Virus record (IMG/VR): IMGVR_UViG_3300036861_000507
Location: 1 to 64,000 of that record
Source: a virus
Direction: 5' to 3' (one strand)
Length of the DNA stretch: 64,000 bases
The notes beneath the pieces are model-generated. The model was not told the origin of the DNA. It saw only the letters and a program-made list of their open reading frames with translations, and searched no databases. The position numbers and the translations under genes are program-made. Below, one piece after another: positions 7,722-35,096 of the stretch. Each line of letters starts with the position of its first letter. Position 1 is the stretch's first letter.

Positions 7722-8816
7722 TTAGATCGCCGACGCGTCATGCAGGAACTGCACGATGCCCGACTGTTGCAGGAGCTTGGCGCCGGTGAACGAGGAGGCA
7801 CGCGCGAACGAATAGTCCTGCTCGTCGTCGTAGCCGATCTTGGTGTCGAGACCCTCTCCCGAGTCGAACGCGGAACCGACGGCATCGCGATGGTAGAAGT
7901 AGCACTTCTCGCTTGCCGTCCCGACGCCGGTGAGGTTGGGATGGAAGATCCAGTTGAAGCCTGCCCAGCGCATCATGCGCCGTGCCGGCCCCGCGAGGAA
8001 CTTCATCTCGACGTAGTCGATCTTGGTGGCCTCGGGGATTTGCATGATGTAGCCGCGCACCGCAGGGGTGGCGACGGCGAACATCTTGTCCTCCTCCTCG
8101 ACGGGCACCTCGTTCTCGCCGAGCGTCACCATCGCCTTCGCGGCAACTGACAGCGCGAAGGTCGCGGCCGCGCCGAGGTTCGAGGTCGCCGTGTCGAGCT
8201 GCGTGATGACGTCAGCATCGAGACGGCGGTTCAGAACCTTGCGCGTGGTCTCCTGCATCAACCTCTTCTGGTCGCCCTGCGACTGGAAGATGTTGAACCT
8301 CGTCTTTCGCACGAGGTCATGCCTGCTATGTTCGCTTGAGGTCGCTACTCTCAAACCGCGTCGGTATTGACGCTGCTTCGGATTGCTCCGAAGGCCAGAC
8401 CATATCATCACCCCTGTGGGGTGCTGGGCGCTTCGGGCCGCTTGGCCCTACTCCTCGAAAGGATGGTCGTTGCACCTTCCGATGTGGGAATTCCCACATC
8501 GGCTTGGCTCAGGATTGTCCCGATGGGAGGTTCCCTGAGTTCACCCAGTTTGCGACGTGCATTGCTGCACGAAGGAGCCGCATGACTCGACCAGCGTCGC
8601 GGTCGTCTGGGTCATTGAATCGGCGCGAGCCGGGATCAGACCGTTGATACCGCGGGTTACTGCAGCGGCACCGCCACTGCCGGCGACCAGGAACGTCGCC
8701 TGGTTGCCCTTGATCACGGCCTCGGTAACAGTCGTTTGCCGAAGCCACGACATACCCTCTTCAAAGGTCGCCACGATCTGCTGGCGATATTGAATTTGGG
8801 GTGCGCTTTCTGCCAT
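7722..8816 (-). CDS. Major capsid protein, two exons (8816-8585 and 8323-7722), 277 aa after splicing
   Basis: Exon 1 MAESAPQIQYRQQ...TATLVE and exon 2 HDLVRKTRFNIF... are in the same frame; joining them gives ...LVE-W-HDL...; follows the scaffold gene; strong SD. Confidence 0.85.
8324..8584 (-). ncRNA. Group I self-splicing intron (IA-like, no ORF) in the MCP gene
   Basis: P1 GAGU/GCUC with U.G at the 5' splice site; P2 and P9 with GCAA loops; P3 CUGGGUG/CGCCCAG; P4 CUCAGG/CCUGAG; P7 GACCA/UGGUC; P7.1, P7.2, P8; J8/7 AUGAUA; in-frame stop inside. Confidence 0.9.
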
Positions 8817-9004
8817 TGTTGGCATCTCCTAGTTGGTTGAGATGCCGTCGTTCTGGTTGTCCTTTTCCGATGCGTTCACGGGTTGCCCCGCCGCGAGGAC
8901 GAGGGCCGCTTGCGCAGCCAAAGGCGCTTCACGAACGGTGGGTGGAAAATGACTGCCGTCCTGGCGCCGGCGAGCCGGGTTGGCCAGACGTTGGCAGTCT
9001 GGTA

Positions 9005-10108
9005 TCAAGCCCGTTGCCGGGCCTGAATCTTGTCACGCGCGGTGATCAACTCGAGCTCGCGCTTCTGAACGGTGTCGCTCCAGTATTTGCGGGAATCCGT
9101 CTGCCGCAGCTTGTTGATCGCGGCCAACTCCGCCTCGATCCCCAGGCCGCCCTGAGCACCATCCTCCACCACGCTGGCGGCGGGGTTGACGTCCCTGGCC
9201 ACGGCCACCAGCATGCGGATGATTTCGGGGTCGTTGCCGTAGATCTGGCCATTGCCGCCGCGGCCGTTCAGCCATTCCTCGAAGCCCTCCTTCCCGCGTG
9301 GATGGAAGGCGTGGAGCGACTGGATCGAGTTCTTGTTGCGCTGGAAGGCCGGGCCCCATTCGTCTTTCAGGGCCTTCTCCGATTCGCGGCGGAAGGTGTC
9401 GTCGGCGGCGTCGATCTTGGCGGCGGCGTCCTCCTCCTGCTTGAAGTACCAGGACAGCGCCGCATTCATGACGGCGGGTGTGGCGCCGGCCTTGTGCACG
9501 GCCGCGGCAAAGCCGTCAGCTACCGGCTTGTCGGCCTCGCCGATGACGGCGCCGTTGTCGAGCTTGATGTCCTTGAAGTAGTCCTCGGGCTTCTCGGGGA
9601 CCCCCATCGCCTTGTGATAGGCCGCGATCTCCTCGGGCTTGGCGTCCTTGCCGGGGACCTTGACGAGCCCGCCGCCGGTGAACCTGCCCTCCAGCTCGCG
9701 GTACATGCCGTACATGCCGGCTGGGTCGATGATGCGCTTCAGCCGCGCCAGTTCCTTGGCGTAGACCTTCTTGTCGCCGCCGGCCAACTGCTCGGCGGCC
9801 TTCTCGCGCCAGTCCTCCGGCCAGTAGGGCTTGTGCGCCTTGTCGGCGGCGTCCTCTTTGGCCTTGTCGTCGGCCGCTACGTCGGCGCCAGCGGCAAGGG
9901 TCTTGCCCTTGCCCTCGCCAGCGGGCTTGCCGTCTCCGGCCGGTTTCCCGTCGCCGTCGGCTTTGGCAGCGTCAGCGACTTTGCCCGCCGCATCTCCTTC
10001 ATCGCCGGCGCCGTCTTGCGTCTCTCCGGCATCGCCCTTGACGTGGGACAGATCCTCTTCCGAGAACGACTCGGCCGCCTCAGCACCGCCTGCCTTTTCA
10101 TCCGCCAT
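9005..10108 (-). CDS. Capsid scaffolding protein
   Basis: Acidic low-complexity N-terminus, WPEDWRE and G.PEKPEDY motifs, LK.EWG; upstream of MCP. Confidence 0.8.
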   Translation of the reverse strand: MADEKAGGAEAAESFSEEDLSHVKGDAGETQDGAGDEGDAAGKVADAAKADGDGKPAGDGKPAGEGKGKTLAAGADVAADDKAKEDAADKAHKPYWPEDWREKAAEQLAGGDKKVYAKELARLKRIIDPAGMYGMYRELEGRFTGGGLVKVPGKDAKPEEIAAYHKAMGVPEKPEDYFKDIKLDNGAVIGEADKPVADGFAAAVHKAGATPAVMNAALSWYFKQEEDAAAKIDAADDTFRRESEKALKDEWGPAFQRNKNSIQSLHAFHPRGKEGFEEWLNGRGGNGQIYGNDPEIIRMLVAVARDVNPAASVVEDGAQGGLGIEAELAAINKLRQTDSRKYWSDTVQKRELELITARDKIQARQRA

Positions 10109-10111
10109 GGC

Positions 10112-10351
10112 CTAGTAAGTCTCCTTCTTGTCGCTCATCTTCATCGCGCCCTTGCCGCCCTTGACGGCGGCCAACGCCTTCATCTGCTCGGCGTGACACT
10201 TCATGGCCGCGCCGTAGCGGGCCTTGTCCTTCTTGATTTTCTCGGCCTCGATCAGGGTGCGGAGATCGCTCTCCGCCATGTACTTCTTCTGCTCTTTTTC
10301 CATCGCGGCTTTGTTCATGGCGCGTCCTGGGTCTGTGGTTGGAACGTCATG
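10112..10351 (-). CDS. Hypothetical phage protein
   Basis: AESDLRTLIEAEKIKKD small helical ORF in the head operon; start uncertain. Confidence 0.6.
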   Translation of the reverse strand, partial: HDVPTTDPGRAMNKAAMEKEQKKYMAESDLRTLIEAEKIKKDKARYGAAMKCHAEQMKALAAVKGGKGAMKMSDKKETY

Positions 10352-10679
10352 CATCGCGGGCACTCTTCTCGAACACCTTCGGGCTCAGCCGCATCAGCTT
10401 GACCAGCTGCTGTCCCACCGATTGCCGGCCATCGATGAAGGCGCCGATGCGCCCGTGCGGGTCCTCGGCCACGAATCCGTTGTCGTAGGACTGGGCCGCC
10501 CCGTGGATGATCCAGTCGAGCGCCCGCCTGACGTCGGCCGGGGACGGGGCCGGGGGCTCCTCGCCGGCCGGCCACGGCCGCTCGGCCCCCATGGCGTAGA
10601 GAGCGAGCGCCTGAACGGCCCTCACATCCTCAGGCTGCCACTCGGCTGGGTGCCACACTGCGCGCTCGGGTTTCGCCAT
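10347..10679 (-). CDS. Small head-region protein (Bbp19-like position)
   Basis: AF.DGRQ.VG motif; follows portal. Confidence 0.6.
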   Translation of the reverse strand: MAKPERAVWHPAEWQPEDVRAVQALALYAMGAERPWPAGEEPPAPSPADVRRALDWIIHGAAQSYDNGFVAEDPHGRIGAFIDGRQSVGQQLVKLMRLSPKVFEKSARDA

Positions 10680-14291: not shown

Positions 14292-14296
14292 TTGAA

Positions 14297-14479
14297 TTAG
14301 TCGAGAAGCCCGCCAAGCGTGCCGCCACTGCTGGCGATGGTCGGTGTGGGCGCAGGCTTCTTCTTGTCCTTGCCGCGGATGCGGTCATAGGCGAGTTGGG
14401 CAAAGCCCATCGGCTTCATCACATCTCCGAGCGGAAAGGGCTTGGTCATGCTCGACATGGTGTCTTTCAGTCCGGCCAT
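14297..14479 (-). CDS. Hypothetical small protein
   Basis: ORF with SD GGAG abutting terL. Confidence 0.55.
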   Translation of the reverse strand: MAGLKDTMSSMTKPFPLGDVMKPMGFAQLAYDRIRGKDKKKPAPTPTIASSGGTLGGLLD

Positions 14480-14533
14480 GCTTCGGTCTCCAGGAGCGTT
14501 GCGCGCGCCAGCGAAGCCCGGTAGAAGGCTTGC

Positions 14534-14785
14534 ATGCTGACGACGCGAAGAGGATTGATTACGGGGCTGGCGGCCTTCTTGGCCGCGCCGGCCATCGTGC
14601 GGATTTCAAGCTTGATGCCAGTGAAGGCGTTCGCGACTGCGGAAGAAGTGTTCTGGTCCGCGCCGTTGCAACTCCCGCCATCAGCGCTTCAGTACAGACA
14701 GGAGTTCATCCGCGTCTTTGAGGAGAGCGTGCAATGGCTGCGACACACAAGTAATGATCAGGCGGCCAGGCTCTTCCAATCCTGA
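14534..14785 (+). CDS. Tat-signal-like small protein carrying an MCP N-terminus-like segment
   Basis: TRRGLITGLAAFLAAPAIVR leader; LQYRQEFIRVFEESVQWLRHT resembles MCP IQYRQQIVATFEEGMSWLRQT. Confidence 0.6.
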   Translation: MLTTRRGLITGLAAFLAAPAIVRISSLMPVKAFATAEEVFWSAPLQLPPSALQYRQEFIRVFEESVQWLRHTSNDQAARLFQS

Positions 14786-15797: not shown

Positions 15798-16658
15798 TCA
15801 ACGTGCAGGATCGCCGCCTCCCGCCCGCTTGATGGCTGCCTCTATGGATACGCCATCATTCACAAGTGCGTAGACGTAGTTGCGGCGGCCGCGGCGTTCA
15901 ATACCAGCGAGCTCTACCGCTTCCGCTATCGTCATCAGGCGCCCGCAGAAGGTCACCGTGTGGTTGCAGCGTCTGTTGCGTTGCTGCTCTTTGCAAGTGG
16001 CCCACCGACAGTTTGCTGCCGCGTAACCCTTGTCGTTGTCGATGCGGTCTATGGTCTTGCCGGGGGGCCGTTCTCCCATGTCGGCGAGGAAGTTTTCAAA
16101 TCTGCGCCAGTGGGCGCAAACAGTGATGCCACGTCCGCCGTAGTCAGCAAACTTTCCATTGTTCTCGTTGAGACACCGCTGCATCATCGCGTCCCACGCT
16201 TGGTACGTCGCTGACCGTCTGTGTGTCGCGTTGTGCCCATGCCTATATCTGCGCTCTGTCGCCCAGCACCCGCATGACTTCGTGTGACCGCTTGTCAGTC
16301 TGCGAGCGACTGTGACGACCTCATTCCCGCATTTGCATCGGCACCGCCACTGTCTTCGTGGCTTGCCGTTCGCACGAATGTATCGCGGCGCTTCATCAAT
16401 AATTGTCAACCGGCCGAACGTGCGCCCGATCAGGCGCGACGCTATCTGCTCGCCATCGTCCACCCGGTAGCAACCGCAATTGGTCGTGTTACCACGACGA
16501 AGCGCCGATTGCCTGATGACGCGTTCGGTTCCGCAATCGCAGCGACAATGCCATTGCTTCTCCGTGCGACCGCTTCGCGCAATGTGCATGGGCGCCTCGG
16601 CGACAAGCGTCCACTTGCCGAAGCGTTGACCGACATTCAGGATGACGATCTTTGGCAT
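15798..16658 (-). CDS. Free-standing HNH homing endonuclease with duplicated N-terminal Cys module
   Basis: Two G..FG.LT...W.CRC.CG...CGC repeats; YGGRGITVC..W; TIDRIDNDKGY...NCRWAT. Confidence 0.85.
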   Translation of the reverse strand: MPKIVILNVGQRFGKWTLVAEAPMHIARSGRTEKQWHCRCDCGTERVIRQSALRRGNTTNCGCYRVDDGEQIASRLIGRTFGRLTIIDEAPRYIRANGKPRRQWRCRCKCGNEVVTVARRLTSGHTKSCGCWATERRYRHGHNATHRRSATYQAWDAMMQRCLNENNGKFADYGGRGITVCAHWRRFENFLADMGERPPGKTIDRIDNDKGYAAANCRWATCKEQQRNRRCNHTVTFCGRLMTIAEAVELAGIERRGRRNYVYALVNDGVSIEAAIKRAGGGDPAR

Positions 16659-16717: not shown

Positions 16718-17431
16718 TCATCGCAGGTGCTCACTTATCCAGCGGTTGCGCGCCAGCACCTCCGGTCGATCATGCTTGCCATGGCTACCGGGAAACGTGA
16801 CCACGCACGCGTTCGCCGGCAGCTCCCCATCGACCCCCGATCCCGGTGTATCGGCACGCGCAAGCCGGTAGACCCCGTCCCGAACCCCATCGAAGTACGG
16901 CACATACGGCCCAAGAGCATCGGAGAGATACCACTGGTCGTCCTTGGCCGGCACCTTCTTGCCGAGGTCGAGGAAGCACTGCCACAGCTCGGGCATGGAG
17001 CCGCACTTGTGCAGCAGCAGAGACGTATTGTAGAGGGCGCGTCCTGGCCTGGATGGGTGCCGGGCCGGGTTCCTCCACAGCACTAGGTCCTCGGTGCGGG
17101 TCACGAGGTGGTCCATGTTGCCGACGATGATGGTGTCCAGGTCCAGCTGCAGGACCCGATCGCCGATCATGGCGTAGGCCTCCATGCAGAAGGTGAACAG
17201 GCGCACGAAGCACGTGCCTGGCACGTGCGTCCGCTTGTCGATGTCGACAGCCCTGATGTGCTGGTCGCAGACGAACGCCTCTGGCTGATCCGTGATGACC
17301 ACGAACTCGTGCGGCACGGTCAGGTGGCGGGCGACCATCCTCTGCAGCAGGCGGACGTCGTCAGGCGTGTAGGGGGCGGCGAACTTGCTGCCTGGGTCTG
17401 GTTGCCAGAAGTACGTGCAGACAACTACCAT
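16718..17431 (-). CDS. GT-A-like glycosyltransferase, paralogue 1
   Basis: RMVARHL..PH.FVVITD, DLD (DxD), YNTSLLL, DDQ, V.FPG motifs. Confidence 0.7.
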   Translation of the reverse strand: MVVVCTYFWQPDPGSKFAAPYTPDDVRLLQRMVARHLTVPHEFVVITDQPEAFVCDQHIRAVDIDKRTHVPGTCFVRLFTFCMEAYAMIGDRVLQLDLDTIIVGNMDHLVTRTEDLVLWRNPARHPSRPGRALYNTSLLLHKCGSMPELWQCFLDLGKKVPAKDDQWYLSDALGPYVPYFDGVRDGVYRLARADTPGSGVDGELPANACVVTFPGSHGKHDRPEVLARNRWISEHLR

Positions 17432-17880
17432 CAGACCCCCAGACACTTATTGCGCTCAGCCCAGAGCGGGGCCATGCGACCGGGGATCAGGCCACTGATG
17501 GCGCTCGGTTCCGCACTGTGGAGCATGATGGCGTCCTGCTCCTCATCGTAGCGGACGACATAAGCACGGTGCGAGGACTTCGGCAAAAGCCCGTTGATTC
17601 CGCGCGTTGCGGTGGGGTCAAAGAACAGGACGATCGGATCGGACCAGATCACCACGACGTCGTTAGAGGGTGGCTCGCGCTTCGACAGATCGCAGGGCTT
17701 GCCGCTGGCCTTGATGAGCGTCTCGAACTCAGCGTAGGTCAGCGTCTTCGGCGTGATGTCGGGCTGCGAAGGGATGTGCCGCCCCACCACGGCTTCGAGC
17801 TCGGCAACAGTCGGCGAACGCGGCTGCGCATTGATGAGTTCGATAAGCGCGCTGGTTATCGCCGTCACGGGCTGGGTCAC
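17431..17880 (-). CDS. Hypothetical protein containing MCP-like peptides
   Basis: GTG start and TGA stop coupled to both neighbours; contains ATRGINGLLP, YDEEQD, ISGLIPGR. Confidence 0.65.
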   Translation of the reverse strand: MTQPVTAITSALIELINAQPRSPTVAELEAVVGRHIPSQPDITPKTLTYAEFETLIKASGKPCDLSKREPPSNDVVVIWSDPIVLFFDPTATRGINGLLPKSSHRAYVVRYDEEQDAIMLHSAEPSAISGLIPGRMAPLWAERNKCLGV

Positions 17881-33731: not shown

Positions 33732-35096
33732 TTACTCAAGCTCATCGATTGTGACGGCCTTTGTGCGGCCCGCTGTCGCGGATTGCGCCGGACCCGGCAA
33801 GGCGGTGTGACGGCTCCCCTCCTCGAACGCACGACCGCGATCAAGCGCGGCATGCAAATGCTTCACCTCGAGGAAGGCGTAGGCGCGCTCGGTCTGCTCG
33901 ATCGAGGCGTGTCCCAGCCACTTCGAAACTTCCTCCATGGAGAGCCGCAGGTCCTGCAAGAGCCGGCACCCGCACGTGCGTCTCAGGTCATGCCAGCGCA
34001 GATCGGGGATGACGTCGGCCCAGGCCTGCTTCTCCTGGAGGGCGGCGATCTCAGTCCGGCGTGCCGGGGTCAGCTTCAGTCCCTTCTGCGCGAGCTTGGT
34101 CACCTCGCGGCGAAAGATGTAGGTGCGCCCGCCTGTGGCAATGTCCTTGAGCATGGGCAGCAGGTCAAAATAGCGGCTGCGGGTCTCGCCATCCTGGTGC
34201 CATAGCACGAACGGAGCCTTCTCACGCCCGCGCGGGTCGTTCTTGCCGGCCAACACATCGGCGGCCCGCGGCAGGGCTTTCAAGATCTTGACGCTGCGCT
34301 GAGGGATCGGAATAGTGCGGCCCTTGCCCGTCTTGCGACCAGTCTTGGCGAGCTCTCTTGGGACGTGCCACTCCGGCGTAGCCTTATCCAGATCGATCAT
34401 GGTCCAGTCAGCAGCGAGCAACTCCTCCTTGCGCAAGCCTATGTCGATCGTCAGCACGATACCGGCGAACAGCATGATGTGGTCCTCCTGCCGCATCGCC
34501 TCGCCATCCCAGCGCGTGAGCTTACCCCGGCAACGCCTGATCAGTTCGTCCTCCTCCTGGTGGCTCAGATAGCGGGTGCGGGTCGGCGCTGGCAACAGCA
34601 GGCCGCGCTTGGCGCGATTGCGCACGTAAGCTGCCACGCGGTTGCCCTCCACCCACTCCCACTCCATGGCGCAGGTGAACATGGCGGATAGGCAGGTGAG
34701 GTCGTTCAGGATCGTGCCGCTGGTGACGCCATCGCGTCGGCGCTTCTGCTCGAACTCCGACAACGTCGACGAGGTGATCTCGTCCAGCATCTTGCCCTTG
34801 AATTGCGCGGTGAGCACCTTGAGGGACTGCAGATAGCGCTGCGCTCCACGCGGCTTCAACCGCGGCAGATGTTCGTCTATGAACTTGTTAGCTGCCTCCG
34901 TGTAGGAGCGCGCAGGCTTTTCTCCCCAGCCTTGACCCTCGAGCTCTGCGAGCCACTTCTTGACCCGCTCTCGAGCAACCTTTGGATCCTTTGTTCCAAG
35001 AGGGTCTCGGAATGGCTTTCCATTCTTTTCCTTGCGCCCCCACGCCCACTCCCCGCGCCACCAGACGTTGTCGATTTTCGGCTTCTTGCTTGCCAT
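33732..35096 (-). CDS. int: Tyrosine recombinase (integrase)
   Basis: GLRKEEL, K(TG), HDLRRT, LGH...T..AY catalytic motifs. Confidence 0.95.
   Translation of the reverse strand: MASKKPKIDNVWWRGEWAWGRKEKNGKPFRDPLGTKDPKVARERVKKWLAELEGQGWGEKPARSYTEAANKFIDEHLPRLKPRGAQRYLQSLKVLTAQFKGKMLDEITSSTLSEFEQKRRRDGVTSGTILNDLTCLSAMFTCAMEWEWVEGNRVAAYVRNRAKRGLLLPAPTRTRYLSHQEEDELIRRCRGKLTRWDGEAMRQEDHIMLFAGIVLTIDIGLRKEELLAADWTMIDLDKATPEWHVPRELAKTGRKTGKGRTIPIPQRSVKILKALPRAADVLAGKNDPRGREKAPFVLWHQDGETRSRYFDLLPMLKDIATGGRTYIFRREVTKLAQKGLKLTPARRTEIAALQEKQAWADVIPDLRWHDLRRTCGCRLLQDLRLSMEEVSKWLGHASIEQTERAYAFLEVKHLHAALDRGRAFEEGSRHTALPGPAQSATAGRTKAVTIDELE

Follow-up and report, generated by a model that had tools for sequence, protein, structure and literature searches.

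A soil-phage mini-protein that pairs a twin-arginine-type leader with a homolog of the phage's own capsid N-terminal helix

Here we describe ORF83, a phage protein in which a twin-arginine-type leader is joined to a segment resembling the N-terminal helix of the same genome's major capsid protein (MCP). ORF83 lies in a 64,000-nucleotide stretch of viral DNA (the window), where it is an intact, selected and accessory gene of a soil phage, and it belongs to a very large family of phage mini-proteins that combine a near-invariant RR leader with a hypervariable tail. Whatever the role of such genes (decoy, eviction, exclusion or assembly control), the union of a leader with a capsid piece would be a new principle, for which ORF83 is a convenient case: the copied element is one confidently predicted helix, its conserved residues are known, and relatives exist with and without the gene. 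The features of the locus are:

14534..14785, plus strand: ORF83, an 83-aa mini-protein (leader, linker, capsid-like helix) with an ATG start.
14523..14528, plus strand: Shine-Dalgarno-like AGAAGG, 5 nt 5' of the ATG, read from the sequence.
14534..14632, plus strand: twin-arginine-type leader, residues 1-33, with the RR at 14546-14551, the h-region GLITGLAAFLAAPAIV and the c-region R..SSLMPVKA, recognised by homolog conservation.
14687..14764, plus strand: capsid-like segment, residues 52-77, LQYRQEF..FEE..WLR.T, within the AF2 helix 49-82, placed by alignment to the MCP.
8718..8795, minus strand: the copied MCP stretch, residues 11-36 of exon 1, in the N-terminal helix, located by tblastn.
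8586..8825, minus strand: MCP exon 1, ~80 aa, contiguous with exon 2 in the relative L045.
7722..8321, minus strand: MCP exon 2, ~199 aa, Pfam PF19821 Phage_capsid_2, from Pfam and comparison with L045.
14292..14757, unstranded: stretch missing from the syntenic L045, containing ORF83 (plus) and a 60-aa ORF (14297-14479, minus), from comparison with L045.

ORF83 is the sole long frame, on the plus strand, in a 280-base gap between minus-strand genes. Its N-terminus, MLTTRRGLITGL, is letter-identical in several homologs, which fixes the start codon, and its GC content by codon position (0.56/0.48/0.71) is compatible with coding on the plus strand. A consensus scan, weak for these hosts, detected no sigma-70-type promoter or intrinsic terminator near the gene. 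An 895-base contig from a second soil study is identical at the DNA level. When the leader of the window is compared with its nearest homologs, synonymous sites have almost saturated (pS 0.5-0.86), yet the peptide has changed little (pN 0.07-0.18); the same pattern led us to reject the idea that the leader is a conserved DNA or RNA element rather than a peptide.

Comparison with related loci places ORF83 among genes that come and go. In the syntenic relative L045, whose terL is 67% identical, the homolog of a 189-aa gene directly abuts terL and ORF83 is missing, indicating that the gene is optional. The metagenome contig L054, by comparison, carries an ortholog of the leader ORF in matching position and orientation. 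It converges there on a homolog of the 189-aa gene (56% identical) and begins ~55 nt from the divergent terL start. Absence from L045, location on the opposite strand and a third-position GC of 0.71, against 0.86-0.94 in the head genes, are moron-like traits. A tyrosine integrase is encoded on the minus strand at 33735-35096 (PF00589, 36.7 bits against a cut-off of 27.1), and the phage is thus probably temperate; expression of ORF83 in lysogens, for which a check had been suggested, would fit its inverted orientation and the presence of this integrase in the window. The 60-aa ORF at 14297-14479, coupled to the terL start, belongs to no family, is found in neither L045 nor L054 and has no homolog in any locus fetched; it may be real or spurious.

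The likeness between ORF83 and the MCP, first noticed by reading the sequence as an ungapped alignment whose DNA differed at synonymous positions, was confirmed in several ways. Residues 52-77 of ORF83 match MCP residues 11-36 without gaps, with 12 of 26 positions identical and 18 of 26 similar (BLASTP, pair E 1e-8). Six-frame tblastn of ORF83 against the 93,968-base genome returned the MCP N-terminus as its only significant non-self match (E 3.7e-5; next 0.33), and in the reverse search with MCP exon 1 ORF83 ranked first (E 8.9e-6). Comparison with shuffled sequences, proposed as a check on the alignment, gave a Smith-Waterman score of 73 against 21.7 +/- 4.3 (z 12), a score reached by none of 5,000 shuffles. 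Over the corresponding 78 bases the DNA is 58% identical; of the 12 residues shared, 8 are encoded by different codons. The likeness is therefore an old similarity at the protein level. The divergence of the DNA and the use of different codons for identical residues also led us to reject a diversity-generating retroelement or recent gene conversion as the source of the segment. Antisense RNA control of the MCP gene was rejected as well, since the ORF83 mRNA carries the sense version and identity is too low for pairing.

The residues kept are chiefly those that the capsid family holds constant. Eleven positions are invariant in 40 MCP homologs (Q10, Y11, R12, F19, E20, E21, G22, W25, L26, R27 and T30), and ORF83 keeps 9 of these 11, whereas it shares just 4 of the 15 variable ones (Fisher p 0.008). 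The motif YR.EFI..FE follows the leader in 18 of 160 family representatives, with the consensus YR.EFI.AFE.....LR, and in many of the carriers an F-E-V-V strand comes next, corresponding to the MCP hairpin. A profile comparison of this 18-member subfamily with the MCP family (hhalign) gave a probability of 94.6% and E 7e-8 over MCP positions 7-48. These results support a true homology, kept by selection, between the ORF83 tail and the capsid N-terminal helix, and together with the L054 ortholog they rule out the alternatives raised at the outset, that the segment is not conserved or decays neutrally. An AF2 model on the subfamily alignment has two helices, that of the leader at residues 5-26 and a long one at 49-82 (pLDDT 88-92), joined by a floppy linker. 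ORF83 has no Pfam match, and just 26-41 of its residues correspond to PF19821, at MCP positions 7-48, whereas the full fold spans ~277 aa; by this measure it is a fragment copy and not a capsid protein.

The MCP itself belongs to a family of 5,319 homologs, the best 120 clusters of which are 77-86% identical to the 277-aa query from L045 (L045:5795-6628). These best homologs are unusually uniform, and their names come from Burkholderiales and Aquamicrobium records. In the window, ~264 bases (8322-8585) that are missing from the intact L045 ortholog interrupt the MCP gene. An AF2 model of the intact ortholog was poor (mean pLDDT 48), and sequence and profile searches of the PDB found no solved relative; on the basis of Pfam membership and position, the copied stretch is probably the N-arm helix of an HK97-type capsid protein.

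The leader was originally described as twin-arginine-like, and its anatomy agrees. The n-region reads T-R-R-G-L-I, with consecutive arginines of the S/T-R-R-x-F-L type; the h-region GLITGLAAFLAAPAIV consists of 16 uncharged residues, is rich in Gly and Ala and includes a proline; a basic residue (R) and then PVKA follow. Most homologs also have a VRA site, so that the leader sites are VRA and/or PVKA. Across 85 homologous leaders or loci the two arginines are conserved at 100% and 98%, although the loci were collected by the pattern LAAPAIVR and invariance there is partly by construction. The curated Tat models TIGR01409 and PF10518 do not match ORF83 at threshold, and the homolog in L007 reaches 14.4 bits against a cut-off of 16.7. 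Language-model neighbours in the ESM Atlas place ORF83 near Fe-hydrogenase small-subunit and TAT_signal clusters. The leader has all the sequence features of a Tat signal but scores below the curated thresholds, and export is putative. Conservation of AAPAIVR.SSLMPV exceeds what a signal peptide needs. Six-frame tblastn found no second copy of the leader in the 93,968 bases of the genome.

A search for homologues, likewise proposed with the original prediction, revealed the size of the family. Among 5.8 billion proteins, 30 small proteins of 74-122 aa carry an ORF83-type leader, a near-invariant M..(S/T)RRGLITGLA.FLAAPAIVRASSLMPVKA ahead of tails that are unrelated. Searching 1.84 billion representatives with a profile yielded 7,214 clusters at E<=1e-3, 1,313 of them also at E<=1e-10, and among the best 150 of the 7,214 clusters nearly all proteins are 67-201 aa long with the leader at the N-terminus. 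The family architecture can be written as ..RRG(F/L)..GL...LAAPAIVR..SLMPV, N-terminal on a protein of 70-130 aa, and ORF83 has it. At one locus (L067, 271-1320) the leader stands on a 349-aa tail with repeated G/N/T motifs, beta-helix-like and with no Pfam match, which shows that full-size cargo, too, is carried by the leader. ORF83 had no tblastn match in 50,697 deposited phage records; 185,579 species genomes yielded three matches, all in alphaproteobacterial MAGs. ORF83 and nine homologs belong to no family in Pfam, PHROGs or NCBIfam, and we found no description of the RR-leader family in the literature, including a November 2026 review of phage countermeasures (PMC13728456). The suggestion that some other tails of the family resemble DUF2190 decoration proteins found no support in Pfam.

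We then compared tails with the proteins of their own loci, covering leader-bearing loci of which 42 were viral and 80 came from metagenomes. Strong matches fall on the resident major capsid gene, across unrelated capsid families:

L007: P22-coat MCP (PF11651), E 4e-13, with a further piece, its order swapped, at E 4e-4.
L003/L004: GP7 MCP (PF20911), residues 116-144, E 1e-6.
L033: phrog_9953 major head protein, N-terminus, E 1e-5.
L096: again the N-terminus of a phrog_9953 major head protein, E 3e-11.
L031: phrog_1357, a weak match, E 0.018.

In L009, a complete 62-kb phage, three leader ORFs lie in tandem at 7930-10363, and two of them copy pieces of a P22-type MCP: one matches MCP residues 8-68 (52% identical, E 2e-20), and the second copying ORF matches residues 376-413 (E 3e-12) and then 103-130 (E 2e-5). 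N-terminal, helix and C-terminal pieces are thus split over two ORFs, and the third tail is unexplained. In all, one leader has taken up capsid pieces independently at least four times, from unrelated MCP families. We nevertheless rejected the idea that copying the capsid is a rule throughout the family: most tails have no match within their own locus, and in L039, which has the MCP type of the window and a similarly inverted layout, the tail of the leader ORF lacks MCP similarity. Judged by these searches, the capsid-copying genes are a subset of the family. In L022, the tail has a strong match to a neighbouring protein of unknown function.

Leader ORFs also tend to lie next to the packaging genes, usually immediately upstream of terL, the gene for the large terminase. 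The leader ORF touches or overlaps the terL start, and shares its strand, in L003, L007, L033 and L096; in the window and L054 it adjoins terL in inverted orientation. About half of 28 large genes located <=1.2 kb downstream of leader ORFs are terL by PHROGs, several encode portal proteins, and the rest belong to replication or modification. A crude gene call put 32 of 65 leader ORFs in the orientation of both their neighbours; 6 of 65 run opposite to both, as in the window. The capsid-copying relatives for the most part share the strand of terL and overlap its start, and so look like late genes.

How the two halves of ORF83 work together can be approached through one reading, the only one we found that uses both the leader and the capsid-like tail. 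Since Tat targeting follows translation, ORF83 would be complete while still in the cytoplasm; its capsid-like helix would bind the normal recogniser of the MCP N-terminal helix, candidate partners being a host capsid-sensing factor or an assembly partner (the scaffolding protein or a neighbouring MCP); and the leader would bring the complex to the Tat translocon, where the partner would be tethered to the membrane or carried out, like Tat 'hitchhiker' pairs. Tat targeting is post-translational and tolerates bound partners, and there are documented cases of cellular Tat substrates exporting partners that have no signal themselves (PMC4273604, PMC10924467). Taken as a whole, this proposal is an argument from design, which we regard as a real possibility falling somewhat short of an even chance; the identity of ORF83 and its mimicry are much firmer than the statement as a whole, and the transport step is much weaker. 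Several observations count against the proposal: the curated Tat models stay sub-threshold, the scan detected no promoter or terminator consensus near the ORF, many family tails have no match in their locus, the tail in L039 lacks MCP similarity, and L045, the closest syntenic relative, is without the gene. A bolder generalization, which we advance as speculative and rather unlikely, is that Tat serves as an eviction route, whereby virion-mimicking mini-proteins would capture cytoplasmic recognisers, either capsid-sensing immune factors or the assembly partners that rivals use, and drag them to or through the translocon. If true, eviction via Tat would be a new general principle of anti-defence or competition involving thousands of phage genes. 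The original prediction had cast ORF83 as a capsid mimic, either a decoy for capsid-sensing host defences or an inhibitor of capsid assembly by related superinfecting phages. As anatomy this stands, with the tail a selected MCP-helix homolog, but the interpretation is otherwise only partly supported: both ideas require a mimic in the cytoplasm, whereas the near-invariant export-type leader would point outward.

Other readings account for some of these observations. ORF83 might be a small periplasmic protein with a job unrelated to capsid partners, such as envelope exclusion, lysis timing or signalling, for which the capsid piece served as raw material for a helical tail. The resemblance of the leader to a normal cleavable signal and the extreme diversity of the tails, many without a capsid match and one of 349 aa, would suit such a protein, yet we consider it unlikely, given that MCP pieces were recruited independently from at least four unrelated MCP families and that precisely the MCP-invariant residues are kept, when raw material put to a new use would be expected to lose them. 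Doubtful, too, is the second idea of the original prediction in the form of a poison subunit made by the prophage and tethered to the membrane by an uncleaved signal-anchor, whose helix would compete with the N-arm of an incoming related MCP for scaffold or neighbour contacts, block head assembly and thereby exclude superinfecting phages. The inversion of ORF83 relative to the late genes, its lower GC3, its presence or absence among relatives and the integrase are all consistent with this role, and in a huge MCP family of ~80% identity one mimic could hit many competitors. Against it, most capsid-copying relatives are late-gene-like, co-oriented with terL and overlapping it; the N-side position of the RR predicts a tail that faces the periplasm; and the h-region, 16 residues that include a proline, is short for anchoring stably in a membrane.

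The siting of family members at the start of the head and packaging module, and the distribution in L009 of N-terminal, helix and C-terminal parts of one MCP over two ORFs, could also be explained if ORF83 assisted head morphogenesis in its own phage or formed a minor part of the head; it might cap the MCP N-arm site until scaffold arrives or occupy special shell positions. With the gene dispensable in the close relative L045, whose head module is near-identical, and with a strongly conserved export-type leader left without a role, we judge this quite improbable. Lastly, the failure to find a promoter and a GC3 below that of neighbouring genes might be expected of a non-functional recombination remnant or a chance ORF in a GC-rich gap, but the syntenic ortholog, the large family and the combination of saturated synonymous sites with a conserved protein contradict this, as does the enrichment of identity at MCP-invariant positions, and we give it very little credence.

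Known systems share parts of the ORF83 design. Capsid, portal and terminase proteins are the main phage cues for bacterial immune systems, and the Gol peptide of T4 gp23, a short conserved MCP stretch, is read by the host Lit protease. MCP and Gp54 trigger CapRel-SJ46, so that host defence recognises an MCP or a small phage protein (PMC13728456). In Gol/Lit and CapRel-SJ46 the stretch sits within the MCP itself and activates defence, whereas ORF83 is a separate gene with an export-type leader; we found no description in the literature of a separate gene that copies an MCP stretch and bears an export leader. Carriers of Tat hitchhikers (PaoA for PaoBC, and hydrogenase small subunits) resemble ORF83 in being small proteins with an N-terminal RR leader, but they are cellular redox enzymes with cofactors, whereas ORF83 is phage-borne, has no cofactor domain and has a capsid fragment as its putative cargo-binder.

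Mimicry of head-assembly partners is also known: CpmB of SaPI1 copies the C-terminal helix of the scaffold, and Sid of P4 is likewise a hijacker of capsid assembly. Both are, by description, small proteins imitating one helix of a head-assembly partner, as ORF83 appears to be; unlike ORF83, they mimic the scaffold rather than the MCP, have no signal peptide and are encoded by satellites, and they share no sequence with it. Morons and superinfection-exclusion genes resemble ORF83 in being small, optional, inverted among late genes and lower in GC3, in phages with an integrase. They differ in that no promoter or terminator of its own was detected for ORF83 and most members of its family are co-oriented and coupled to terL. 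To our knowledge, no moron family has the architecture of an RR leader with a capsid copy.

Two further ORFs of the window deserve mention. A 286-aa ORF on the minus strand (15798-16658) has repeated C..C pairs and an IDRIDN..GY...NCRW motif of a kind seen in HNH homing endonucleases; Pfam gave no match supporting such an assignment. Within the ORF at 17431-17880, which has no RR leader and no Pfam family, TRGINGLLP (17581-17607, minus strand) matches TRGINGLIP of MCP residues 57-65 at 8 of 9 positions. This is the second-best match of MCP exon 1 genome-wide (E 0.11, not significant alone), and the ORF may encode a second capsid-piece protein.
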